A stretch of DNA of 64,000 nt, taken from NCBI GenBank assembly GCA_963765675.1, contig CAVXXK010000006.1, forward strand, positions 288,001-352,000, read 5' to 3'. The DNA is from an uncultured delta proteobacterium. GTDB lineage: Bacteria; Desulfobacterota; Binatia; Binatales; Binataceae. Each line of letters begins with the position of its first letter. Position 1 is the first letter of the stretch. This document shows, piece after piece, positions 10,559-23,371 of the stretch. Both the position numbers and the translations under genes were made by a program. The notes beneath the pieces were generated by a model. That model had not been told where the DNA came from and ran no database searches. It was given only the letters and a program-made list of their open reading frames with translations.

Positions 10559-11365
10559 ATGCCAGCGGTAAATTTCGAGACACGCAATCATATCGCCTAC
10601 CTCACTCTCAACCGGCCCGAGGTTCACAACTCGTTCAATCCCGAAACGATCGTGCGACTGGGCGAAGCGTGGCAGCAGATCAGCACCGACGACGACGTGC
10701 GCGCCGTGATTATCACCGGCGCGGGCAAAGTCGCGTTCTCGGCCGGCGCTGATTTGGGCAAACTCATTCCGCTCTTCACCGGCGCGCGCAAACCGGCCGA
10801 CGAATGGGACGAAAAGCTCCTGGCGAACCGCAAACTGGGCGACGCCGCGCTGCTGCGCAATTTTAATCTCGACAAGCCGGTCATCGCGGCGGTCAACGGC
10901 TTCTGTATCGCCGGTGGGATGGAACTGATCCAGGCGACGGATCTGCGCGTCGCCTCGGACAACGCGAGCTTCGGCCTGCAGGAGGTCAAGTGGGCGATCA
11001 TCCCGGCGGCGGGATCGCTCGCGCGCCTGCAGCGCCAGATTCCTTACTGCAAGGCGATGGAAATCCTGCTGACTGGAAATCGCATCGATGCGCAGGAGGC
11101 GTGGCGGCTCGGCCTGGTCAACTATGTCGTCACGCCCGACAAGCTGATGGCGAAGGCCGAGGAACTGGCCGCGACGATCGCCGCCAACGGCCCGCTCGCA
11201 GTGCGCAAGATCAAAGAGGCGGTGCGGCGCACGTCGGGACGGCCGCTGGAAGAAGCATTCAAGATCGAGAACGAATGCGCGCGCGAGGTGATGCGCTCCG
11301 AAGATGCCAAGGAAGGCCCGCGCTCATTCATGGAGAAGCGCAAGCCCGTCTACAAAGGGCGCTGA
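10559..11365 (+). CDS. Enoyl-CoA hydratase/isomerase (crotonase family)
   Basis: FSAGADL, AVNGFCIAGGME, FGLQEV. Confidence 0.93.
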   Translation: MPAVNFETRNHIAYLTLNRPEVHNSFNPETIVRLGEAWQQISTDDDVRAVIITGAGKVAFSAGADLGKLIPLFTGARKPADEWDEKLLANRKLGDAALLRNFNLDKPVIAAVNGFCIAGGMELIQATDLRVASDNASFGLQEVKWAIIPAAGSLARLQRQIPYCKAMEILLTGNRIDAQEAWRLGLVNYVVTPDKLMAKAEELAATIAANGPLAVRKIKEAVRRTSGRPLEEAFKIENECAREVMRSEDAKEGPRSFMEKRKPVYKGR

Positions 11366-11375
11366 GTTTGATCCT

Positions 11376-12380
11376 CTATGCGCCGGCGAGCGCGCGCATC
11401 GTCGCGGTGTAGTCGCGCGTGAAGGTCGCCGCCGGTCCGATCGGAAACACCACCGGATGGGTCACGCCCGCGGCGCGGAAGCGTGCGATAAATTCGCGTC
11501 CCATGTCCGCGGATCCGAACGCCGCGATTTTGGTCGCATTGGCGTCGCTGATCGCGCCCGGAGCCTCGTCGCGCTTGCCGAGCTGCCACAGCCTGCGCAC
11601 CTCGGCGAATTCGTCCTTGAGTCCGTAGCGCGCGAACATCTTGTTGTAGCTGTCGACGAACGCGTAGCCCGCGAGCTCGCGCTTGAATGACTGAACCGCC
11701 TTGTCCACGTCGGGCGTGATACACATGCGCGCGTAGATTCCGATATCGACACTTCCCGGTGCGCGGCCAGCCTGCGCTTCGCCGGCGCGAATCTCCGCGA
11801 TCATCGGCGCCACCGCGTCGGGCGGCGAGTAGTTCATCAGCACGCCGTCGGCGATTTCGCCCGCCAGCCGCAGCATCGGCGCGTTCAGCACCGCGAGATA
11901 AATCCGTGGCGGGCGCGGCGCGCTGATTCGCATGCCGAGCCGGAAATCGGACTTGTAGATTTCGCCCTGAAACTTCGAGCGCCCCTCGGTGAAGAGCTGG
12001 CGCATGATCGTCACGCACTCGCGCATCGCGGTGACCGGCTTGCGGTACGCCAGTCCGTGCCATCGCTCGACGATCACCGGGCTCGACACGCCCAGCCCCG
12101 CTATCGCACGGCCCTGCGAGTATTCGTTAATCGTCAGAAAGCTCATCGCCATCGCGCCCGGAGTACGAATCTGGATCGGGATCACACCGGTTGAGAGATC
12201 GACCTTGCTGGTGTTGAGTGCGAGCGCGCCAAGGCTGACCAGCGCGTCGGGGCCGGAAACCTCGGCCACCCACAGCGACGAATAACCAAGCTCCTCGGCC
12301 TCTTTGGCAACGGCGAGGCGTTCGCGGACGGGGCCGCTACCGAGCGAAATTTGCAGTCCAAGTTTTGCGGGATCGGACAC
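11376..12380 (-). CDS. LLM-class flavin (possibly F420)-dependent oxidoreductase
   Basis: AEELGYSSLWVAE, GRAIAGLGVS, LAGEIADG luciferase-like pattern. Confidence 0.88.
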   Translation of the reverse strand: MSDPAKLGLQISLGSGPVRERLAVAKEAEELGYSSLWVAEVSGPDALVSLGALALNTSKVDLSTGVIPIQIRTPGAMAMSFLTINEYSQGRAIAGLGVSSPVIVERWHGLAYRKPVTAMRECVTIMRQLFTEGRSKFQGEIYKSDFRLGMRISAPRPPRIYLAVLNAPMLRLAGEIADGVLMNYSPPDAVAPMIAEIRAGEAQAGRAPGSVDIGIYARMCITPDVDKAVQSFKRELAGYAFVDSYNKMFARYGLKDEFAEVRRLWQLGKRDEAPGAISDANATKIAAFGSADMGREFIARFRAAGVTHPVVFPIGPAATFTRDYTATMRALAGA

Positions 12381-12587
12381 AGAATTCTCCTGGAACTCCT
12401 GAGACTTGATGGAGTCCCGCGATTGTCGCGCGAACTCTCCGAGGCCGCAAGCTGACGCTCGAGCGTTCTGGACGAAAGCTGGCGCATCTTATAAGAGAGC
12501 AGTCGCGCAAGGGTAAAGGGGCGTCCCGCATCGAATCCTTTCGCGGGACGCGATCGTACTAGAAGATAGAAGACCGTCGAGGCGAAT

Positions 12588-14277
12588 ATGACCAGGATCA
12601 AAACCATCCTAGCCACCACCGCGATTTTGGTTGCTTTCGCTGTACCGGCTTTCGCGCAATACCAACCGTGGCCGACTCCGTTTCCATCCGCTCCCAACTG
12701 GGGCGACTACGATCAGAGCCACACTTGGCGCGGCGCCGATTGGTGGTGGAACAATAATCCTGCCTGGGTGCGCGCGCACGATCCTGACTGGTGGGGCGAC
12801 TGGGACGATTCGCACGTATGGCGTCCGGCGTCGTGGTGGTGGGAGAACAATCCCGGATGGGTTCGTGCGCATCATCCGGAATGGTGGGGCGATTTCTACC
12901 AGGGCAAATGGTACCCGGCCGGATGGTGGTGGCAGAATCAGCGCGAATGGGCCGCTACGCATCATCCGGAATGGTGGGGCGACTTTGACGGACAGACGTG
13001 GCATCCGGCGCAGTGGTGGTGGATGACGCGCGCGGACTGGGCGCGAGCGCATCATCCGGAGTGGTGGGGCGATTCATGGGAGAACATCTGGTATCCCGCC
13101 GATTGGTGGTGGCAACTCCAACCCGATTGGGCGCGGGCGCATCACCCGGAATGGTGGGGCGACTATTGGCAGGGCACGTGGTACCCGGCCGGATGGTGGT
13201 GGCAGAACCAGCGCGACCTGTGCGAGAAAAATCATCCTGACTGGTGGGGCGCCTTCGACGATCAACACTTCTGGCGGCCCGCCGGATGGTGGTGGCAGAA
13301 CCACGCCGACTGGTGCGAAAAGAATCATCCAGACTGGTGGGGCGCGTTTGATCAGCAGCGCGTCTGGCGTCCTGCTGGATGGTGGTGGGACAACGATCCC
13401 GCGTGGGCACGCCAGAATCATCCTGACTGGTGGGGAGACTACGACGCTCAGCACGTATGGCGTCCGGCGTCGTGGTGGTGGGAGCATAATCCGGAGGAGG
13501 CTCGCGCCAATCACCCCGACTGGTGGGGCGATTTCGACGACAAGCATGTCTGGCACGCCGACGAATGGTGGCAGGCGCGCGATCCAAAGTGGGCCGCGCA
13601 GCATCATCCCGAATGGATCGGCGACTACGACGACAAGCATGTGTGGCACGACGTGAATTGGTGGGCCGCGAAAGATCCGGCCGAAGCGCGGACACGCCAT
13701 CCCGACTGGACGCCGCAACTAAGCCACGCGCTCGACCGCCAGCACCTGCAGGATCAGACCGCGTTGCAGCGCCAGCATACCAACCAGTTACGAGATCTCG
13801 AGACCCAGCAGACCGAGCAGCGCAACAACGAAGAACGCGCGCGTAACGAACAGCTACGCGCAATCGAGCAAAAGCATCAGCAGCAGGTTGACGCGCTCGA
13901 GCGCCAGCACGTGCAGGAGTCGGCGCAGCAGACCAAGCGCCAGCAGCAGGCGGCTGACGCGGAGCAGAGGCGCAACGACGCGGAGTCGGACGCATCAGGA
14001 CCAAATCGCTGCCTTGCAGCGGCAGCATCAGCAGCAACTCCAGCAGTATCAGCGCCAGCGCGCGCAGCAGGAAAACGCGTCGCGCGACGCGAGAGTCCGC
14101 GCCCGGCAGACGCTGCTGGAGCAGCACGCGCGGGAAACCTCGGCGCTGGAGCAGAAGCATGCCGAGCAGATGAGATCATTCGGGTCGCGCGCCGAGGCGC
14201 GTCCGGCCGAGCCGCGCGCCAGATCGAATCCTCCTGCCGAAAGACGGGAGGTCCCGCCTGCGCGCGACAAGCGCTAG
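12588..14277 (+). CDS. Secreted Trp-rich tandem-repeat protein with Gln-rich coiled-coil tail; 1-nt frameshift near 13986
   Basis: Signal peptide MTRIKTILATTAILVAFAVPAFA; 11 repeats; the Q-rich tail continues in the 13888..14277 frame and stops just before a hairpin. Confidence 0.85.
12693..13709 (+). repeat. Coding tandem repeat, 11 units of 90-93 nt
   Basis: Consensus HP(D/E)WWG(D/A)(Y/F)DxxHxWxPAxWWWxNxxxWxxx(H/N) read from the translation. Confidence 0.95.
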
Positions 14278-14289
14278 CTTATGAGGATC

Positions 14290-14324
14290 GCCGGGCGGGG
14301 CAATCAGATCCCGCTCGGCATTTA
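14290..14324. terminator. Hairpin between the convergent Trp-repeat gene and gspN
   Basis: GCCGGGCGGG-N10-CCCGCTCGGC followed by ATTTA. Confidence 0.5.
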
Positions 14325-14344
14325 ACTCGACGCCGTCCTTCTGA

Positions 14345-15205
14345 TCAGCTGAAGTTGGGCGAGCCGAGCGTTCCGCCCAGCGAATAGGGCGCGGTACCCG
14401 GTGGATGCGGCAGGAAGTTCAAGAGAAAGCGCAGCTTCATTCGCGCGGCCGCCGACGGTACCAGCGTGAAATGCAGCGCGAGCGCGCTGTCCCGCCACGC
14501 GGGCGCGAGCTTGATCGCGCCGCTGCCGTTGATCGCCAAGTCACCGCCGGAGGTCTTGAGGCTCGTGATCGAAAGCACGCCCTTTTCGAGCTTCAGCGTC
14601 GCGTCGAGCGCGCCCAGGTCGAGCAGCGGCATCGGTATTCTGAGGCGTCCGGAAAAGTTGGTTGCGCGAAGATGAATCGTTCCTGAGTCCAAGTTGGGAT
14701 CGTCAGGCATCACCAGCATAGAGCCCGTAGCGTCGAGGCTCCCGCCCAGCATCGCGCCGAGCGCGTGCAGGGCTTCGTAGCTGTTCAGATCGACCTTGTC
14801 GGCCGAAAATTTGAGCGCGGTGCCGGAACCGCTGCGATGCGCCGTAATCCTGATCGTTCCCTGGTAGGCGTCCGCGCTCGCGCGGATTCCGGGCCGAAGC
14901 AGCAAAATCGAGAGCAGAGCCGGTGCGATATGCACACTGTCGCTTTCGAATAGCGGGACCGCTCCGGGAGTGTAAGGCGCGATTCTGACTTGCGAGAGTT
15001 TTGCGCCAATTGGAATTGCCAGGCGTTGTCCGCCCGAGCTCACCCGCAGGCCCATCGGCGCCAGCACCGCGGAGAATGCGCTCGCATAGGGGAAGCTCGC
15101 GAACAGGAAGAAAAAGAACAGCACCACCCCCGTTGCAAGGTAGCCCGACTCGAGCCGATGCGTGCGCCAATACTCGAAGGTGAGGAGCTCTCTGAATTCA
15201 GGCAT
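14345..15205 (-). CDS. gspN: Type II secretion protein N
   Basis: Single TM followed by FPY motif and beta-rich periplasmic part; last gene of the gsp operon. Confidence 0.75.
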   Translation of the reverse strand: MPEFRELLTFEYWRTHRLESGYLATGVVLFFFFLFASFPYASAFSAVLAPMGLRVSSGGQRLAIPIGAKLSQVRIAPYTPGAVPLFESDSVHIAPALLSILLLRPGIRASADAYQGTIRITAHRSGSGTALKFSADKVDLNSYEALHALGAMLGGSLDATGSMLVMPDDPNLDSGTIHLRATNFSGRLRIPMPLLDLGALDATLKLEKGVLSITSLKTSGGDLAINGSGAIKLAPAWRDSALALHFTLVPSAAARMKLRFLLNFLPHPPGTAPYSLGGTLGSPNFS

Positions 15206-15842
15206 TGTGACCGAGCGCGACGCAGGTGATATCGACGTCGTAGGAATGAGTGTCCTGGGTGCGGCGCTGGATGCGCAAGTTCTCGACCCCGACCGGCACC
15301 GGCATCGTGCGCACGGAGTAGAGCGCGTCCACGATTTGCGCCAGGCTCACGTTCTCGAGCTTCAACTGTACGCTGTATTGCACCAGGCCGTCGGAGAGCT
15401 TCTTGTCCTCGGCCGGAGTGATCGAGGAAATCTTGCCGCGGCCGACGCTTTTGGTGAACGACGCTTCCACCACTGAAAACAGCGAGAAGTCCCTGCCTTG
15501 CGGAACGGTGCTGTGCTCGGCGCTTTCGAGGTCGGCCTTGACCGCCGCGTAGTTTGCCGCCAGATGCCGTACGCTGCCCAAGTCGTGTTCGCGCTCGGCT
15601 AGCCGCTGGTCGAGGCCCGAGTCGAAATCGACGATCGGAGAGTAGACGAGGTTATAAAGCAGGAAGATCGCGACCAACGCGGCGCCGATTTGAACCAGCA
15701 CGCGCTCGCGGGTCTCGAGCTTCTGATAACGCGCGCGGCTCTGCGCAATCAGCGGGTCGACCCGGTCGCGCAGTTGATCGATCTGCGGTCCGAGCGTCGC
15801 GCGGATCCACGCTTCGAGCTTTTGTATATATTCGCGCAGCAT
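15198..15842 (-). CDS. gspM: Type II secretion protein M
   Basis: LETRERVLV + TM + coiled coil + ferredoxin-like C-terminus; position after gspL. Confidence 0.78.
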   Translation of the reverse strand: MLREYIQKLEAWIRATLGPQIDQLRDRVDPLIAQSRARYQKLETRERVLVQIGAALVAIFLLYNLVYSPIVDFDSGLDQRLAEREHDLGSVRHLAANYAAVKADLESAEHSTVPQGRDFSLFSVVEASFTKSVGRGKISSITPAEDKKLSDGLVQYSVQLKLENVSLAQIVDALYSVRTMPVPVGVENLRIQRRTQDTHSYDVDITCVALGHNA

Positions 15843-15846
15843 CGCT

Positions 15847-17313
15847 TCAGTCGGCTCCGCCGTCCGAGTCTTTGAAGTCCGCACTCATTCGGAACTCGAC
15901 CTTGCTTGCGTCCTCGCCGGCGCGCGCGTGGGTGACCTCGATCGCGCCGAAATTGCCGCCCAGGTCGAGCGCGTGCTTGACCTCGTCAACCGAGGTGAAC
16001 GAATCGGCAAGTCCGGTCACGCGGAGTCCCGTGGCGTCGATTTGTACGTCTTCCAACTGGACGGGCAGGCGCTTGGGAATCGCGTCGGAGAGCGCGCGCA
16101 GCGTCTCGAGCGGCGAGTTGCGCGCGACGTTTCCGCCGATCAGGCGCAGGCGCTTGTTCATCGAGGCGATACCGCTGCGCAACTCCCGCATCGGATCGGC
16201 GGGGTTGCTTTCGCCCAATACAGGACCGGCGATCGCGGCTATCTGCGAGTCGAGCACGCTCAGGCGATGCAGCTTGCCGATCACTCCTGAAGCGAAATTC
16301 AGTAGAATCAGAAACACCACGCAGGCGGCGAGGATCGCGGGAGTGTAGAACGGTGTCAGGTCGCCGCGCGTGCTTCCACGAAAGGCGAAGGCCGCCTGGC
16401 GGAAGTTCAGCAACGCCACCGGCTTGGTCGGCAGCTCCCCCACCAACATCGCGATCGTGGTGCCGAAGCGCGTGATATCGGGCCGCGTACCGCCGAACAT
16501 CGCCGAGCAATCAAACTCGCGCGCCTCGCGCGGAACCAGAGCAACCGCTTCCGCCAGCATTGCCTTGACCCTTGGCATCGCGGCTCCCGCTCCGGTGATG
16601 ATCAGGTCTCCACCTTCGAGTTCGGCGGCATGCGCCAGCATCGTTTGCCGCAGAGCGTTGACGACCGGGGTAGCCTGCGCGGGCGTGGGCGCTGCGCCGT
16701 CCGCGTTGATCAACCCGCCGCCAACGGTTCGCATCACGCGCGGAATTCCCTCGACATCGAGCAGCACCATCGAGGTCGAATCCTGCTCAGCTTCGACCAC
16801 CAGGTGCGGCGTCGGACGCGTGCCGTTGCGCGCCCGCGAGAACATCGCGGCCAGAGCGTAGGGCGCGAGCGTCACGGTCTTGGGGTCGAGACCCGCGCGG
16901 GCAAGCAACTCCAGATGATGCTGCATCTCCTGTTTGCGCGCGAATGCGGCCAGCACCAGCGACCTGTCGCCGTCAGTGCCCAGGCGCGTGAACGCGATGA
17001 CAGCTCCATCGACCGGGAACGGCAGATGCTCTTCGAGCGCGAACGGAACCACCTGATGCAGCCGGCGCAAATCGCCGAACGGCAACTCGAGAATTCTTTT
17101 GGTGACCGCCTCTGAAGGGAGCGCGGAGATCAGGATATCGGGGCGCCCGGATTTCTCGGTCAGGCGCAACAACGCCGGCACGACATCGGTCTCGTCGGGC
17201 TGCTGATGGGCTTCAAAAACGCCGACGAAATCGAACGTATTCCAGGTGCGATTCGCGGCTGCGGCGCGTACCCGTTCTCCGGCGATCTCGAGAGCAATAA
17301 TACGCTGAGGCAT
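15847..17313 (-). CDS. gspL: Type II secretion protein L
   Basis: Actin-like cytoplasmic domain (LPF...VPFALEEHLPF), NFR motif, TM, periplasmic domain. Confidence 0.82.
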   Translation of the reverse strand: MPQRIIALEIAGERVRAAAANRTWNTFDFVGVFEAHQQPDETDVVPALLRLTEKSGRPDILISALPSEAVTKRILELPFGDLRRLHQVVPFALEEHLPFPVDGAVIAFTRLGTDGDRSLVLAAFARKQEMQHHLELLARAGLDPKTVTLAPYALAAMFSRARNGTRPTPHLVVEAEQDSTSMVLLDVEGIPRVMRTVGGGLINADGAAPTPAQATPVVNALRQTMLAHAAELEGGDLIITGAGAAMPRVKAMLAEAVALVPREAREFDCSAMFGGTRPDITRFGTTIAMLVGELPTKPVALLNFRQAAFAFRGSTRGDLTPFYTPAILAACVVFLILLNFASGVIGKLHRLSVLDSQIAAIAGPVLGESNPADPMRELRSGIASMNKRLRLIGGNVARNSPLETLRALSDAIPKRLPVQLEDVQIDATGLRVTGLADSFTSVDEVKHALDLGGNFGAIEVTHARAGEDASKVEFRMSADFKDSDGGAD

Positions 17314-17325
17314 CTGAACCCGTCG

Positions 17326-18279
17326 CTAATCTTCCTGCCAGGACATAAGCGTTGCGGTCCCGTTGCCCTGCCGACGGAAAGTCGAGTACACCAGTTTTCT
17401 CGACCCAGCGAAAGTACCCATCGCGCTGATGGTAAAGAAGCTGCTCTTGGTGGTTACGACTTGCATGAGCTGCTGCGAAATCGCGCCCAGATCGGGCAGG
17501 TTTCCGATGTCCGTGACGTTGGTAAACGGCGTCAGCATCCGCGCCGCGACGATCTCTTTGACCATCTTGGGATCGTCCATGAGCTGCGGCAGCAGCGAGG
17601 CCAGAACCTCCGGCGGCGCGGTATTGGCGTTTACAACAGGCTCGGGATAGACGGTCACGAATGGAAGCAGGGTGTTGAAGGTTGCTTCATCGATACCCTT
17701 AATCAGGCGCAAGTCGCCTATCGTCGGCATCATGTTGTTGCGCGGAGAGTAGGGCGGCACCAGGCGCATGTAAAAGTCCATTCCAGCGCCGCCCGGTGAC
17801 TCGATGTTAGCAGGATTGATCCAGTCGGCGATGGCTGGAACGAGCTGAGGCGAGACTCCCAGGATCGTGAACAGCCGCACCAGCTGCTCCGCCAGAGGTT
17901 CGTTCAATTTTCCGTTCTGCTGGTTGATGAGCTGATTCAAATCAACCTTGCGCGCTTCATCGACGATAGACAAAGAGACCTTGCCGCCGTCCACGTCGAT
18001 CGGCGGAAACGGCACCGCCCACACGTCCGTCAGCGCGTCATACGGAGTCTGGCTCAACGAATCCGTGCGTGAGTCCTCAGCCAAAAGGCCGAGTCCGACC
18101 GAGACCGCCGAGCGCGCAAGATAGTACGCGCGCAACTCGTTGGTCTGATTGGCGGCGGACAGGTAGTTCAGCGCGGCGGCGGTGCTGAAATCGACGATGA
18201 TCAATGTCATCAGTGCGATACCCATCAGCACGACCAGCAGCGCGATGCCGCGCTCGCTTTTTTTGAGCTGCTTCACCAT
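17326..18279 (-). CDS. gspK: Minor pseudopilin K
   Basis: ERG|IALLVVL prepilin without E5; DEARKVDLN, IADW, VNANTAP motifs. Confidence 0.92.
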   Translation of the reverse strand: MVKQLKKSERGIALLVVLMGIALMTLIIVDFSTAAALNYLSAANQTNELRAYYLARSAVSVGLGLLAEDSRTDSLSQTPYDALTDVWAVPFPPIDVDGGKVSLSIVDEARKVDLNQLINQQNGKLNEPLAEQLVRLFTILGVSPQLVPAIADWINPANIESPGGAGMDFYMRLVPPYSPRNNMMPTIGDLRLIKGIDEATFNTLLPFVTVYPEPVVNANTAPPEVLASLLPQLMDDPKMVKEIVAARMLTPFTNVTDIGNLPDLGAISQQLMQVVTTKSSFFTISAMGTFAGSRKLVYSTFRRQGNGTATLMSWQED

Positions 18280-18908
18280 ACGGCAATCGACATCGGCAGC
18301 ATCACCTGGGTCGAGAAGCGCAGGTCGCGCCCGTTGGGTGCGGCCATGTCGAGATTGATCGAGACCGCGATCGGAAGCTGGTTGCCGGGAGAGAGGATGT
18401 CAGAGTTCCAGGTATCGCCCCATTGATTGCCATCGAAATAGCGCATCCTGAGCGACAAGACGTTGTCCGCAAGAATGATCGGCGTGGACGCCCCTCCGGT
18501 CGCGAGGCCGCTGCGCTGCGTTCGCTCGAGGATCATCCATCCGCGATGCGACGGGTTCTGGACCAGAGAGTAGGTGACGATATCTTCCGGACTAAAGCCG
18601 GCCAGCGCGCGGCGATGGGCCGCGTCGAGGGTCGAGATCGAGATCGAATTGGCCGCGGACCCGGCGATGAACTGGTCGATGCCGTGGAGCATCACGCGGC
18701 TTTGCGCGGCGGGCGTCTGCACCGCGCCGCGGATCTCGCTGGTCAGCTCCCAGATAATCGAACGGCCGGCACGGTCGGCCCACATTCGTCCCTCAGCGTG
18801 CATCTTGCTGGCGGCGACCGCGTGAAACGAGCTCGCCATCATCGCCATGATGATCGCCAGAATCGCGACTGCGAGCATCATCTCGATCAGCGTGAATCCG
18901 CGCGCCAT
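18273..18908 (-). CDS. gspJ: Minor pseudopilin J
   Basis: G|FTLIE N-methylation site; RYFDG..W..TW..LP C-terminus. Confidence 0.85.
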   Translation of the reverse strand: MARGFTLIEMMLAVAILAIIMAMMASSFHAVAASKMHAEGRMWADRAGRSIIWELTSEIRGAVQTPAAQSRVMLHGIDQFIAGSAANSISISTLDAAHRRALAGFSPEDIVTYSLVQNPSHRGWMILERTQRSGLATGGASTPIILADNVLSLRMRYFDGNQWGDTWNSDILSPGNQLPIAVSINLDMAAPNGRDLRFSTQVMLPMSIAVW

Positions 18909-18938
18909 GCGGCGCGATTGATTGTTGGCGGATCCGGA

Positions 18939-19382
18939 TCATGGTTGGTCTTCGTCGGAGTCGGAATCGCCGTTCTGCGGCTCGACGGGAATCGGGTTGT
19001 GCAGGAACTCCGTCAGCTCGAAGCTCTTTGAATGATTAGGCCCGTAAAAAACGATCACCTGAACCTTGCACACGTCGGGAAAGAATCCCGACATAGTGAC
19101 GATCTGCTCCCAGCTAAAATTCGGATATTCCTTTGGAAACAGGGTCTCGAAGTTGCCCTTGGTCATTCCCGGATCCGGAAATCGCTCCATTTCCGCGACC
19201 GACATGACCGCCTGCGCGAGTTGCGCGGCGCGCGATATGTCCTGCCCGTGGATCACGCTCTGCAGGCTCTGATGATGCAGCGCGAGCAGCGCCAGCAGCG
19301 CGATTCCCAGTACCGCCATCGCGAGCATCACCTCGAGCAGGGTGAAGCCCGCCCGCATCCGACGCTTCAGCTCGGGGGTCAT
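18939..19382 (-). CDS. gspI: Minor pseudopilin I
   Basis: G|FTLLEVMLA; ATG 19382 overlaps the gspH stop. Confidence 0.82.
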   Translation of the reverse strand: MTPELKRRMRAGFTLLEVMLAMAVLGIALLALLALHHQSLQSVIHGQDISRAAQLAQAVMSVAEMERFPDPGMTKGNFETLFPKEYPNFSWEQIVTMSGFFPDVCKVQVIVFYGPNHSKSFELTEFLHNPIPVEPQNGDSDSDEDQP

Positions 19383-19966
19383 TGCTGCATCACTTGGGCA
19401 AAGGTCTGGTCGCCGGAGACGATCGCCACCTGTCCGGTGAGCGGGTTGAACGCCAGCGTCATCACGTGACCCGACAGATCCATCAGATGGACGAGCGTCG
19501 CGTCGACATAGCCCTCGGGATAGAACTGGCAAGCGACGGAGCCCTTGTCGAAGGTGCCCTGATCGGCGACGGTGACGTCGCGAATCTCGACCGACGGCGG
19601 CATCGCAACTATATTGCCGGCCATCGAATGGTCGGGAACGAATTGAGGATTGGCGGAATAGGGGTCGAGCCGCGCGACGGCGTAGCGCTGATGATCCATG
19701 TCGAAGATCAGCCGCAGCACCACCTTCTGTGTCGCCGCCTCGTCGTACAGATAAGAAACGCGCCCAGCGAGCCGGCGTGATTGGCTCTTTAGAGCAGCCT
19801 GCCGGTAGCCGCCCATGTACGGAATCGCGAGCGTGAACATCAGCGCCATTATGAAAATGACGATCGCGAGTTCGAGCAGAGTAAATCCGCGCTCGGCCGA
19901 AAGCCTTCCCGCGATCGCTCGGCGCGAAGTTCCGGCCCCGATGCACGAGTGAAGCGTGCGCCTCAT
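19379..19966 (-). CDS. gspH: Minor pseudopilin H
   Basis: G|FTLLE; FYPEG and NPLTGQV motifs. Confidence 0.82.
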   Translation of the reverse strand: MRRTLHSCIGAGTSRRAIAGRLSAERGFTLLELAIVIFIMALMFTLAIPYMGGYRQAALKSQSRRLAGRVSYLYDEAATQKVVLRLIFDMDHQRYAVARLDPYSANPQFVPDHSMAGNIVAMPPSVEIRDVTVADQGTFDKGSVACQFYPEGYVDATLVHLMDLSGHVMTLAFNPLTGQVAIVSGDQTFAQVMQQ

Positions 19967-19973
19967 AGATTAC

Positions 19974-20390
19974 TCAGGACGAACTACCATCAATATCGTC
20001 GGCGCTTTGGACTCCGTCGGGTCCAAAGGATTTGAGCGAGTAGGTGTTGCCGTCGCTTTGGTAGAAGTACTGATTGCCCCACGGATCGTTCGGTAGTTTC
20101 TCGATATATCCGCCCTGTTCGTAGTTGTTCACCGGACGGCCGGTGGTCGGCGGAGTAACCAGCGCGTTGAGCCCCTGGTCGGTGGTCGGATAGGAACCGT
20201 TGTCCAGATAGTAACGATCCAGTGCCTGCTTTAGCTCCTGGATATCGGCCTGAGCCTTGGTGGTCTTCGCTCGATCGGCGACGCCGCGCAGCCGCGGCAC
20301 GACCATCAGCGCCAGCAGGCCGATAATCATGATGACCACCATTATTTCGATCAGGGTGAAGCCATCTTGATTGCGCAGTCGTGTTCGCAT
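19974..20390 (-). CDS. gspG: Major pseudopilin G
   Basis: G|FTLIEIMVV, YPTTDQGLNAL, LPNDPWG, SFGPDG..DDI. Confidence 0.96.
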   Translation of the reverse strand: MRTRLRNQDGFTLIEIMVVIMIIGLLALMVVPRLRGVADRAKTTKAQADIQELKQALDRYYLDNGSYPTTDQGLNALVTPPTTGRPVNNYEQGGYIEKLPNDPWGNQYFYQSDGNTYSLKSFGPDGVQSADDIDGSSS

Positions 20391-20413
20391 CGTTAAACCT
20401 CGTGGCCCGCCGG

Positions 20414-21634
20414 TTACTGCATAATCTGGTTGAGCTGGAAGATCGGCATCAGCACCGCGAGCATCATGAAGACGATAACAGCCGCCATCGCAAGCGTCAT
20501 CACCGGCTCCAGAATCGTGGTCATCTGGCTGAGTGAGTGTGAGACTTCGCGTTCGTAATTGTCTGCGACCCGCTCGAGCATGCCTTCGAGCTCGCCCGAG
20601 CGCTCGCCAACGCGAATCATTTCGATCAGCAGGGGCGGGAAGAGGCCGCTCTGCGCGAGAGTGTGGCCCATGCCATGGCCCTCGCGAATTTCCTCGCGGC
20701 TCTTCTCGATCGCGTCGCGCAGCAGGCCATTGGTGACGACGCCCTTGACCGCGTCCATCGCGGGCAGCAGCTGCACGCCTGAGGCGAGCAGGGTCGAGAG
20801 CGTGCGCGCAAAGCGCGCGCAGATGATCCGGATCATCGTCGGACCCAGGTACGGCGCGCGCAGCACCGCCGTGTCGTATATACGGCGCCCGCGCGGCGTG
20901 GTCAGGCCGAAGGTCACGCCGGCGACTACTACGACCAGCAGCACCAGCAATTCGAGCCAGTAGCCGGTGATCGTGTCGGACAGACCGATTAGTACTTGTG
21001 TCGCAAACGGAAGCGCGGCGTGCTGTTGCTGGAAGATCGTCGCAACCTGTGGAACTACATAAGTCACCAGGAAGCCCATGATCGCCGTGCCGACGCAAAT
21101 CATGATCACAGGATAGGTCAGTGCACCGCGCACCTTCGCGACAAACTCGGATTGCCGTTCGCTGTACTCGGCCAGCCGGTCCAGGACCGATTCGAGCGCT
21201 GCCGCCTGCTCGCCCGCGCGAACCATCCCGACATAGAGTTCGGAGAAGACCTTCGGATGCATCGCCATCGCGTCGGCGAGCGAACTGCCCTCGCGCACGC
21301 GCTCGCGCACCTGCGAGAGCATCCGCTTGATACTCGATCGCGAAGACTGGCTCGAGAGAGCGCCCAGAGCGTCGACGAGCTGCACGCCCGCGCCGAGCAG
21401 CGCGCCGAGCTGGCGCGTGAGCAGGCCAAGCTCCGAGGCTTTCATCCCGCGCCGCGCAAACGGCGACAGGCTGCGCTCGGGTTTTATCTCGGCGCCAGCC
21501 TCGGCGGAGAGTTCGGTTGGAAAGATTCCCCGCTCACGCAGCACCGCGCGTGCGTCGCGCGGACTATCCGCGTCGATAACTCCGGATACGTTACGGCCTT
21601 CGGCTGAAAGGCCACGGTAAGCAAAGACCGCCAT
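20414..21634 (-). CDS. gspF: Type II secretion inner-membrane platform protein F
   Basis: Two GspF domains: VREGSSLADA, GEQAA, ALTYP, GERSGEL, LEP. Confidence 0.96.
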   Translation of the reverse strand: MAVFAYRGLSAEGRNVSGVIDADSPRDARAVLRERGIFPTELSAEAGAEIKPERSLSPFARRGMKASELGLLTRQLGALLGAGVQLVDALGALSSQSSRSSIKRMLSQVRERVREGSSLADAMAMHPKVFSELYVGMVRAGEQAAALESVLDRLAEYSERQSEFVAKVRGALTYPVIMICVGTAIMGFLVTYVVPQVATIFQQQHAALPFATQVLIGLSDTITGYWLELLVLLVVVVAGVTFGLTTPRGRRIYDTAVLRAPYLGPTMIRIICARFARTLSTLLASGVQLLPAMDAVKGVVTNGLLRDAIEKSREEIREGHGMGHTLAQSGLFPPLLIEMIRVGERSGELEGMLERVADNYEREVSHSLSQMTTILEPVMTLAMAAVIVFMMLAVLMPIFQLNQIMQ

Positions 21635-21655
21635 CGCTTTTGGCAGACATCGCGC

Positions 21656-23371
21656 TCAGGCGATGTCTTCCTGGGTCCGTAGCAGCAGCTCCTCGATCGA
21701 CGTTTCTCCAGCGAGTATCCGGTCGGCGCCGTCCTCGCGCAGGAGCTTCATCCCTTTGCTGGTGCAGTGCCGACGCAGAGTTGCGCCGTCGCTATTCTGC
21801 ATCACGAGCGCGCGAATCTCGTCGTCCATCAGCATCAATTCCTGGATCGCAAGGCGGCCCTTGTAACCGGTGTTGCGGCACAGACGGCATCCCTTTGCGC
21901 GATAGACCGCGTGCGGGATGTCAGCGGGCGTAAGCCCGAGGCGGGCCAGTTCCGCGGCGGTCGGAGTGTAGGCCTCGCGGCATTCGACGCAGAGCTTGCG
22001 CACCAGGCGCTGCGCCAGCACGGCGAGGATCGAAGAGGACACCAGGAATGGCTCGATTCCAAAATCGAGTAGTCGCGTGACCGCGCCGAATGAATCGTTG
22101 GTGTGCAGAGTAGAGAACACCAGGTGCCCCGTCAGCGCGGACTGGATCGCGATCTCGGCGGTCTCGCCGTCGCGGATTTCGCCGACCATGATCACGTCCG
22201 GATCCTGGCGCAGGATCGATCGAAGTCCGCTGGCGAAGGTCAGATCGATCTTCGGATTTACCTGCATCTGGCCGACGCCGCGAAGCTGGTACTCGATTGG
22301 ATCTTCGATCGTGATGATGTTTTTCTCGGGCGAGTTGATCCGGCTGAGGCACGCATACAGCGTGGTCGATTTTCCCGAGCCGGTTGGACCGGTCGCGAGG
22401 ATAATTCCGTGGCTCTGCCGAATCAGCCGATCGATCTTGCGCAGATTTTCGCCGGAAAATCCCAGGCGGTCGAGATTGATATCCACCGCCGCCTGTGCAC
22501 GATCGAGCAAGCGCAGCACCAGGCGTTCGCCAAACGCGGTCGGAATACTCGAGACGCGGATATCGATATCGCGCCCGGCGATCCGGAGCCGGATACGTCC
22601 GTCCTGCGGCAACCGCTTCTCAGCGATATTGAGACCCGACATGACCTTCACGCGCGAGGTGATCGCGGGCTGAAAACGCTTGGGTGGCTCGAGCACGTCG
22701 TACAGCATCCCGTCCACCCGGAAGCGCACAACCATCTCGCGCTCGAAAACTTCTATATGAATATCGCTGGCGCGATCCTTCACGGCCTGCGACAGGATCC
22801 CGTTGACCAGCTTGATAATCGGCGCCGAGTCGTCGGTCTCGAGCAGGTCGCGCGGCTCCTGCGCGAGTTCGTTGGCGACCACATCGAGCCGCTCTTCTTC
22901 GAGATCGATCATCAATTCTTCGGCGGTCGTGTTGCTCGCGTTGTCGTAGGCGCGATTGATCGCCTCGTTGATCACCTCGGCAGGCGCCACGACCGGATTT
23001 ATCGGCAAACCGAACAACAGGCGAAGATCGTCGAGCGGTTCGTAATTTGAAGGATCGACAATTGCGACCGTGACACCCGACCCGTCGCTCGCGATAGCGA
23101 GTAGCCGGTTTTTCTTCGCATAATTTATTGGGACTTTGCTGACCAGCGCGCTATCGAGCGAGTGTTCATCGATATGTGCCTGGAAGGGCAGGCGATATTC
23201 CTGAGCGAGCGCGCGGGCCAGACGCTGCGGCTCGAGCGCGCCCATCTCGACCAGCACGTCGGCCAGCTCCTGGCCGGGCTTGCGCCGCTGGCGAGCCTTA
23301 TCGAGGTCCTGCGGCGAGACCCACGAGCGGTCTAGCAGGATCGACTCGAAACTCTTACGCGCAGTGGCCAT
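21656..23371 (-). CDS. gspE: Type II secretion ATPase E
   Basis: GPTGSGKST, TIEDPIE, LRQDPD, TGHLVFSTLH, two CxxC zinc motifs. Confidence 0.96.
   Translation of the reverse strand: MATARKSFESILLDRSWVSPQDLDKARQRRKPGQELADVLVEMGALEPQRLARALAQEYRLPFQAHIDEHSLDSALVSKVPINYAKKNRLLAIASDGSGVTVAIVDPSNYEPLDDLRLLFGLPINPVVAPAEVINEAINRAYDNASNTTAEELMIDLEEERLDVVANELAQEPRDLLETDDSAPIIKLVNGILSQAVKDRASDIHIEVFEREMVVRFRVDGMLYDVLEPPKRFQPAITSRVKVMSGLNIAEKRLPQDGRIRLRIAGRDIDIRVSSIPTAFGERLVLRLLDRAQAAVDINLDRLGFSGENLRKIDRLIRQSHGIILATGPTGSGKSTTLYACLSRINSPEKNIITIEDPIEYQLRGVGQMQVNPKIDLTFASGLRSILRQDPDVIMVGEIRDGETAEIAIQSALTGHLVFSTLHTNDSFGAVTRLLDFGIEPFLVSSSILAVLAQRLVRKLCVECREAYTPTAAELARLGLTPADIPHAVYRAKGCRLCRNTGYKGRLAIQELMLMDDEIRALVMQNSDGATLRRHCTSKGMKLLREDGADRILAGETSIEELLLRTQEDIA

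Follow-up and report, generated by a model that had tools for sequence, protein, structure and literature searches.

In exported proteins, aromatic-rich repeats in tandem are typical of carbohydrate- and cell-wall-binding modules. The choline-/cell-wall-binding repeats of Gram-positive surface proteins (CW_binding_1) are hairpin-only units of about 20 residues. CpxP/Spy/ZraP, SmbP and SilE/PcoE are small exported proteins that are soluble, helical and rich in histidine and acidic residues, with no enzymatic domain. The prion octarepeat, PHGGGWGQ, is a Gly/His/Trp repeat that binds Cu(II). Tryptophan is both the rarest and the costliest residue in proteins. Here we describe a gene for an exported protein in which about one residue in five of a long repeat array is tryptophan. 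It lies in a 64,000-nucleotide stretch of DNA, hereafter the window, from an uncultured delta proteobacterium of the Binataceae (GenBank assembly GCA_963765675.1, contig CAVXXK010000006.1, positions 288,001 to 352,000). To our knowledge, almost no proteins have been experimentally characterised from the Binataceae, a widespread uncultured lineage of soil and peat. We are confident that the gene encodes a real, Sec-exported, soluble and acidic protein of a Binataceae-restricted family under strong purifying selection.

The window protein resembles the CW_binding_1 repeats in being exported, predicted to be elongated, and built of short aromatic-rich tandem units that vary in number and contain one hairpin each. 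It differs in that its units are 30 or 31 residues long and are modelled as a hairpin plus two helices, in its several-fold higher tryptophan content, and in the histidine-striped helix that follows the array. The CW_binding_1 hidden Markov model gave no row at E-values up to 10, a range in which the HMMER filters drop most matches above 0.1. The protein may work like CpxP/Spy/ZraP, SmbP and SilE/PcoE, as a metal or stress buffer of the envelope. However, it matches none of these families, its array matches none of their folds, and none of them has Trp-rich repeats. A helical-hairpin chain of the CpxP/Spy/ZraP (LTXXQ) type was absent from the fold-search lists; for the stalk, modelled only to residue 405, this absence does not count against such a fold.

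The open reading frame (ORF) at 12588..14387 of the plus strand encodes 599 residues as assembled. An earlier note, made from the letters of the stretch alone, had described 11 tandem repeats of about 31 residues with about 21% tryptophan, and the counts agree with it. Residues 24–374 contain 75 W in 351 (21.4%), together with 40 D, 27 H and 15 E. Residues 38–374 (nucleotides 12699-13709) divide into 11 tandem units of 31, 31, 30, 30, 30, 30, 31, 31, 31, 31 and 31 residues, with 4–8 W in each and a mean pairwise identity of 52%; Tandem Repeats Finder reports periods of 90, 93 and 180 at this place. The isoelectric point of the array is 5.1 (55 acidic and 25 basic residues beside the histidines), and it has only 2 Cys and 1 Met. 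Its tryptophan richness is not a product of chance and makes it an extreme outlier of its genome: the median W content there is 0.9% (6201 ORFs of at least 100 residues with a third-position GC content (GC3) above 0.68), and the next-richest 351-residue segment of any ORF holds 22 W.

The units are of two types (Table 1). The 30-residue pattern of units 3–6 recurs in 11-unit orthologues, and units 10 and 11, which have WW in place of WWW, correspond to the last two units in 7 of 9 orthologues compared. Nine junctions read HP(D/E)W(W/I)G(D/A). The motif given in the earlier note is a fair consensus of the units, but in its strict form it fits only one of them. A logo was built from 330 units of 34 orthologues in 31-residue numbering. 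G2, W10, W15, W16, W23, H28, P29 and W31 are 88–100% conserved and W1 80–98%. Among the charged and histidine positions, H28 reaches 96–97%, D3 76–85% and E/D30 82–100%, and D5 (97%) and H8 (78%) are kept only in the 31-residue units, the 30-residue type having neither. Two public short-read contigs (X1 and X2) join 12811 directly to 13451, skipping 639 nucleotides (nt), exactly seven units, in frame. With 34–35 letters shared at the joint, this is probably a repeat collapse in assembly, the alternative being a shorter allele.

Residues 1–405 were modelled by AlphaFold2 with 24 orthologues as the alignment, giving a mean predicted local distance difference test (pLDDT) of 84.1 and a predicted template modelling score (pTM) of 0.73; units 6–10 alone gave 89.5 and 0.73. 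In the models, each unit consists of a beta-hairpin, with GDY and WRP as strands and D-x-x-H as loop, and after it two seven-residue helices, A-x-W-W-W-x-N and then P-x-W-V-R-A-H; the linker H-P-E-W closes the unit. Together the units are predicted to make up an extended array of repeats to which no solved structure corresponds. Foldseek returned nothing at E ≤ 0.001 for either model. Its top rows were the LDL-receptor class A modules of LRP2/megalin (E 1.3) and the EAGR-box domain of the Mycoplasma terminal organelle (PDB 4dcz, E 5.6), which are likewise small, aromatic- or acid-rich repeated modules; at E 1.3–10 and TM-scores of 0.1–0.27, these rows are insignificant and give no evidence of kinship. 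VIA-align against 48,161 chains found none at Z ≥ 2 for the five-unit model and, for the 405-residue model, a maximum Z of 4.5 on the terminal helix only. The two best rows of the ESM Atlas score 0.78 each, too low to count; both are nameless clusters labelled 'hypothetical protein', one found most often in Binatota and the other with no recorded taxa.

Pfam and NCBIfam contain no matching family; the only rows are at chance level and lie in the stalk, the best having E 0.057 and 12 bits where the cut-off is 213. Five full-length orthologues gave no family at E ≤ 1, and the unit profile found no match among PDB sequences (best E 2.7). No description of such a protein was found in the literature listings and the opening parts of abstracts. 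The first impression that the protein belongs to no named family thus holds for Pfam, NCBIfam and the PDB sequences. The further proposal of a new repeat fold is favoured by the confident, regular models, which are predicted to be unlike any solved structure, although a missing match alone is not proof of a new fold. The continuous aromatic core or surface that the earlier note attached to this fold is a proposal. A conserved protein of this composition with an unmatched regular fold would show that protein cores can be built in a way not seen before. The array would also be an obvious target for structure determination, for spectroscopy of exciton-coupled tryptophans and for protein design.

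The repeat unit is very rare. An exhaustive profile search of 1.84 billion representative proteins found only 179 at E ≤ 0.001, of which 67 reach E ≤ 1e-10; most of the 179 are short proteins or fragments with 1–6 units. Homologues exist, and no characterised repeat family was matched. A word-indexed search of 5.8 billion proteins gave four matches. Scanning one genome per species yielded 38 loci, of which 36 are long forms with 47–66% identity; nearly all are in metagenome-assembled genomes (MAGs) titled Candidatus Binataceae, Binatus or 'uncultured delta proteobacterium'. Within its own family, 108 of 151 genomes (a tally that includes five unpublished genomes) have some match and 56 have one at E ≤ 1e-40. 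In a sample of the phylum (301 genomes), the unit profile at E ≤ 1e-5 picks out only three, all from family f1, and no other family of this sample has the unit. On these sequence comparisons, the protein family is restricted to the Binataceae in the genomes sampled. Two kinds of row were set aside. Those for Aldedh and IstB among the representatives are probably chance or alternative-frame matches, and no real co-occurring domain was seen in the 70 representative matches scanned. A 137-residue Trp/Ser-rich ORF (35 W) at 5953-6366 of L041, from an Acidimicrobiales MAG, came up among the candidates with 31% identity and E 4e-5; it appears to be an alternative-frame or low-complexity reading and not a relative.

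The orthologues share one layout: a signal peptide, 7–12 units and a stalk of 150–190 residues. Tryptophan makes up 19.5–22.6% of the array in all 34 orthologues measured. In a genome of the same genus (G074) the orthologue is collinear: across 5.8 kb, 92% of the nucleotides are identical, and at the protein level the two arrays are 97% identical. Between these two arrays the ratio of nonsynonymous to synonymous substitution rates (dN/dS) is 0.034 (dS 0.36), and by this measure the gene is under strong purifying selection.

The sequence at the N-terminus is that of a Sec-exported soluble protein, with a basic N-terminus, a hydrophobic core, an A-x-A site and no lipobox cysteine; a twin-arginine motif is also absent. 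These assignments were made by reading the n-region, core and A-x-A site from the sequence. The Kyte-Doolittle mean is 1.92 over residues 4–22, and no transmembrane-like segment follows, the highest 19-residue mean after residue 24 being 0.97. Both the signal with its putative AFA|Q site and the lack of a transmembrane segment, as first read, are thereby upheld. The same signal-peptide layout is found in all 24 orthologue N-termini that could be delimited. Judged from its sequence, the protein is exported via a Sec-type signal.

In contrast to the reading that ended the gene at 13709, the protein continues past this point into a stalk of about 150 residues rich in Q, R, E and H, which AlphaFold2 models as one long helix from residue 372. 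Along the stalk, histidine has an autocorrelation of 0.344 at a lag of 11 residues and of 0.176 at 22 (34 sequences), and hydrophobic residues have one of 0.212 at lag 11. The stalk is a hendecad helix with a histidine stripe, the helix itself being predicted. Relative to G074, whose orthologue is uninterrupted (561 residues, ending ...PARDKR), the window has an extra base at 13986 that shifts the last ~95 codons. Near 13940 the third-position GC signal passes from frame 0 to frame +1, and translation in frame +1 from 13987 corresponds to the C-terminus of the G074 protein, ...ALQRQHQQQLQQYQRQR...PARDKR, up to the stop. The tail read in frame 0 drops to a GC3 of 0.42–0.60, has a counterpart in no orthologue and is probably not native. 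The sole public contig across this position (X3) does not have the extra base; it is about 94% identical and hence comes from a relative, and no public read of the strain itself crosses the position. Wrong-frame readings of the array part, seen as Gly/Arg/Val-rich stretches, occur in L026, L039, P0003, P0004, P0005, P0007, P0008 and P0105, which suggests indel errors in repeat assemblies. The extra base may be an error of assembly or a true lesion, and in either case the array is intact.

The C-terminal tail differs among genera. In 22 of 34 orthologues it is Gly/His-rich (GGG plus at least two His), for example ...APHGGGGGGHPEAPHGGGEHH, and most of the others are His/Pro-rich. The APHGGGGG-type repeats of these 22 tails resemble the prion octarepeat. 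The likeness is limited to other genera, as the window's genus has a basic Pro/Arg tail, ...PARDKR, with neither Gly nor His.

What could such a protein do? The earlier note named glycan, pigment or hydrocarbon binding, metal binding, charge transfer along tryptophans, UV shielding and a surface polymer as candidate functions. The best explanation, which we put forward tentatively when taken as a whole, is that the tryptophans would build a scaffold on which divalent transition-metal ions would be bound. The ligands would be the acidic and histidine residues at the unit junctions (H-H-P-E-W-W-G-D-x-D-D-x-H), the histidines that stripe the stalk and, in most orthologues, the Gly/His tails, and the protein would be a metal buffer, store or chaperone. 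A tryptophan scaffold with divalent-metal binding, acting in the periplasm or outside the cell, is possible but doubtful. Metal binding is suggested by the conserved junction residues (H28, E/D30, D3, D5 and H8) and by the array's composition (55 acidic, 27 His and 25 basic residues), together with the stripe and the His-rich tails, which occur in orthologues and in short relatives alike. Several observations weigh against it. No metal-related gene is a conserved neighbour, and no known metal-binding family is matched in Pfam or NCBIfam. The window's own genus lacks the Gly/His tail. The hairpin-loop site is not universal, since the four 30-residue units have neither D5 nor H8. The conserved Asp, Glu and His could also have a purely structural part, as partners for buried indole N-H groups, and the frameshift could mean that this copy is decaying.

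Three short relatives are encoded in the same genome: a tandem pair of 132 residues (one unit) and 192 residues (two units), and a protein of 325 residues (two units). The pair lies outside the window at 776-1174 and 1213-1791 of L002 (G000 contig C6); both proteins are secreted and the second ends in a His/Asp/Gly-rich stretch. An OmpA-like protein with a long poly-Pro run is encoded downstream of the pair (L002 2058-2786). ORF lists for the surroundings of both paralogue loci, read by eye, contain nothing telling. In general, the short relatives have 1–3 units, often with His-rich tails. A 48-residue N-terminal module, FxxFLxxHPxxAxxLxxNPxLxYxPxWRxxHPxLxxFLxxHPxVW, is found in 36 of 152 proteins examined (among them P0013, P0021, P0045, P0073, P0108 and P0122) and is often duplicated. 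It weakly matches the mycobacterial haemophores, which are likewise small, helical and secreted: 7 of 11 proteins match TIGR04529 (E 6e-6 to 0.06; best 27.1 bits, below the cut-off of 32), and 3 of 74 match PF16525 (MHB; best 24.4 bits, below the cut-off of 27.4). A profile of 15 short relatives did not find the solved haemophore among PDB sequences, its best row (E 0.13) being unrelated. A relation between the module and the Trp unit was considered and rejected (hhalign probability 3.6%). The long window protein has neither the module nor a PF16525 or TIGR04529 row. The haemophore likeness of the module is a lead only, drawn from profile matches.

On one side, the gene is flanked by a luciferase-like monooxygenase gene (11376-12380, minus strand). 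On the other, tail-to-tail with gspN, it adjoins a type II secretion operon running from gspN to gspE (14345-23371, minus strand). By Pfam the operon contains gspN, M, L, K and J, two further pseudopilin-like ORFs, and F and E; no secretin (gspD) was seen among the window ORFs scanned. In three genomes of the same genus (G020, G092 and G044), the flanks 10600-12452 and 14345-16398 are collinear with only 72–105 nt between them. G044 is unpublished; G020 and G092 give the same result. By this alignment the difference is a one-gene insertion or deletion. Since a single-gene segment is present or absent between the same flanks within one genus, the gene is accessory and monocistronic. A conserved link to type II secretion was rejected: none of six gsp genes sought lies within 6 kb at any of the 38 orthologue loci, and the operon is kept without the gene in the three genomes above. 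The adjacency is incidental.

The genes beside the orthologues vary from clade to clade. Only within the Binatus clade are they conserved, and there they are ordinary: a flavin adenine dinucleotide monooxygenase, a glutathione S-transferase, an epoxide hydrolase, MaoC, a K-channel-like protein and a response regulator. In 12 orthologues of this clade (L004–L007, L010–L013, L015, L020, L021 and L026), an element of 16–26 nt (TTGGCTTGCGATGCGA...TTGACTTGAC) lies some 30–60 nt before the start, downstream of a TATAAT-like box, and is identical or nearly so. Four genomes were searched for TTGGCTTGCGATGCGA. It occurs exactly once each in G448, G450 and G451, at the orthologue locus, and in the fourth, G449, the orthologue's copy (L015) has two mismatches. 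No regulon emerged from these four genomes, and the element is absent from the window. It may be a gene-specific element of the 5' untranslated region or an operator.

The same features can be read in other ways. One, which we consider rather unlikely, is a structural or adhesive envelope protein, whose rod-like Trp array would bind polysaccharide, cell-wall material, humic or aromatic soil matter or minerals, with the hendecad helix as a spacer or self-association stalk. Aromatic-rich tandem repeats are typical of carbohydrate- and cell-wall-binding modules, the unit number varies from 7 to 12 across lineages, and the modelled shape is elongated, with no chain at Z ≥ 2 for five units. Near-identical public pieces come from soil and freshwater-sediment metagenomes of one study. 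Some indoles are also probably exposed or at unit interfaces in the model, because W17 is the least conserved tryptophan of the logo (61–65%) and three successive tryptophans of one helix cannot share one core. Yet no carbohydrate- or cell-wall-binding family is matched and no anchor is present (lipobox, sortase signal, transmembrane segment, or OmpA, LysM or SLH domain), and purifying selection on nearly all positions would be unusual for a simple spacer. Binding of haem, another tetrapyrrole or a planar aromatic ligand, in which tryptophans would pi-stack and a histidine serve as axial ligand, is very unlikely. The units are rich in both residues, and the module of the short relatives repeatedly gives sub-threshold haemophore matches; all of these are under the curated cut-offs, however, and the window protein has no such module. 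As for the neighbouring secretion system, the tail-to-tail arrangement and a Sec signal like that of type II substrates would suit a cargo protein, but the distribution of gsp genes largely refutes the linkage, and we find this reading scarcely credible.

Trp/Tyr hole-hopping chains are established in redox enzymes, and a chain of tryptophans, with Tyr or His, might carry holes or electrons across the envelope or be a sink for oxidants, singlet oxygen or ultraviolet light. Some 70 regularly arrayed tryptophans, with six positions conserved in each stretch of 31 residues, would fit such a role. The gene is linked to no cytochrome, redox partner or cofactor-binding motif, and with so few Cys and Met in the array we regard the idea as highly improbable. 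A bolder form of it, which we rate as a long shot, is a new architecture in which the working part would be the interior of a rod of ~10 nm, a near-continuous ladder of ~70 stacked indoles. This ladder would be a hole or electron conduit, or a sacrificial oxidant sink, linking the envelope to metals, minerals or humic matter, with the junction His/Asp sites as its entry and exit points. Were either metal binding or a redox role true, it would be an undescribed envelope function in soil bacteria. Independent of all these readings is the question whether the frameshift at 13986 is real and this strain's copy a pseudogene in decay, with no present function. In favour of decay, the extra base lies outside any homopolymer, and members of the genus can dispense with the gene. 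Against it, the array is undamaged, as are the first 92 codons of the stalk, and dN/dS has the low value given above; an assembly error is plausible because other assemblies, and metagenome proteins of the family as well, often show frame-shifted array readings. We consider decay unlikely.

Table 1. Features of the tryptophan-repeat gene and its immediate surroundings, in window positions
Feature	Position	Strand	Remark
Segment present here and in G074, absent in G020, G092 and G044	12453..14344	.	1892 nt, gene plus ~135 nt upstream
GAGG ribosome-binding site	12579..12582	+	5 nt ahead of ATG, read from sequence
Signal peptide, aa 1-23 = MTRIKTILATTAILVAFAVPAFA, then Q	12588..12656	+	basic n-region, hydrophobic core, AFA
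Pro-rich linker, aa 24-37 (QYQPWPTPFPSAPN)	12657..12698	+	lower pLDDT, 56-76
Units 1-2, 31-residue type (WGDYDxxHxWRPAxWWWxNxPxWVRAHHPEW)	12699..12884	+	
Units 3-6, 30-residue type (WGDxYQGxWYPAxWWWQxQPxWxRxHHPEW)	12885..13244	+	
Units 7-11, 31-residue type	13245..13709	+	
First stalk part, aa 375-466, array frame	13710..13985	+	Q/R/E/H-rich helix (predicted)
Extra base relative to same-genus orthologue G074, shifts frame	13986	+	DNA alignment
Remaining stalk and basic Pro/Arg tail, only in frame +1	13987..14277	+	stop 14275-14277
Ala/Arg-rich tail, frame 0 as assembled	13987..14387	+	overlaps gspN end by 43 nt
11-bp GC-rich hairpin, then AUUUAACU	14290..14319	.	between convergent gene ends; possible terminator

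Upstream of the gene, no sigma-54 consensus within two mismatches is present in 12381-12587 (the whole window has 22 matches against 21.3 expected), and the promoter scan found no sigma-70 consensus; a TATAAG with a weak -35 is visible by eye. The hairpin downstream has a z-score of only -1.24, which is weak, and is not listed on the plus strand by the terminator scan. Among the public data sets listed with pieces that match the gene, none is of RNA. A 9-bp GC-rich inverted repeat (GCGTCCCGC ... GCGGGACGC) lies at 12521-12551 in the 5' region of the gene; in G074 three stem positions differ with no compensating change, which makes conservation of the structure improbable. ARAGORN, run on the G000 genome, calls two tRNA-Trp(CCA), one of them unusually long (93 nt), and three tRNA-SeC.

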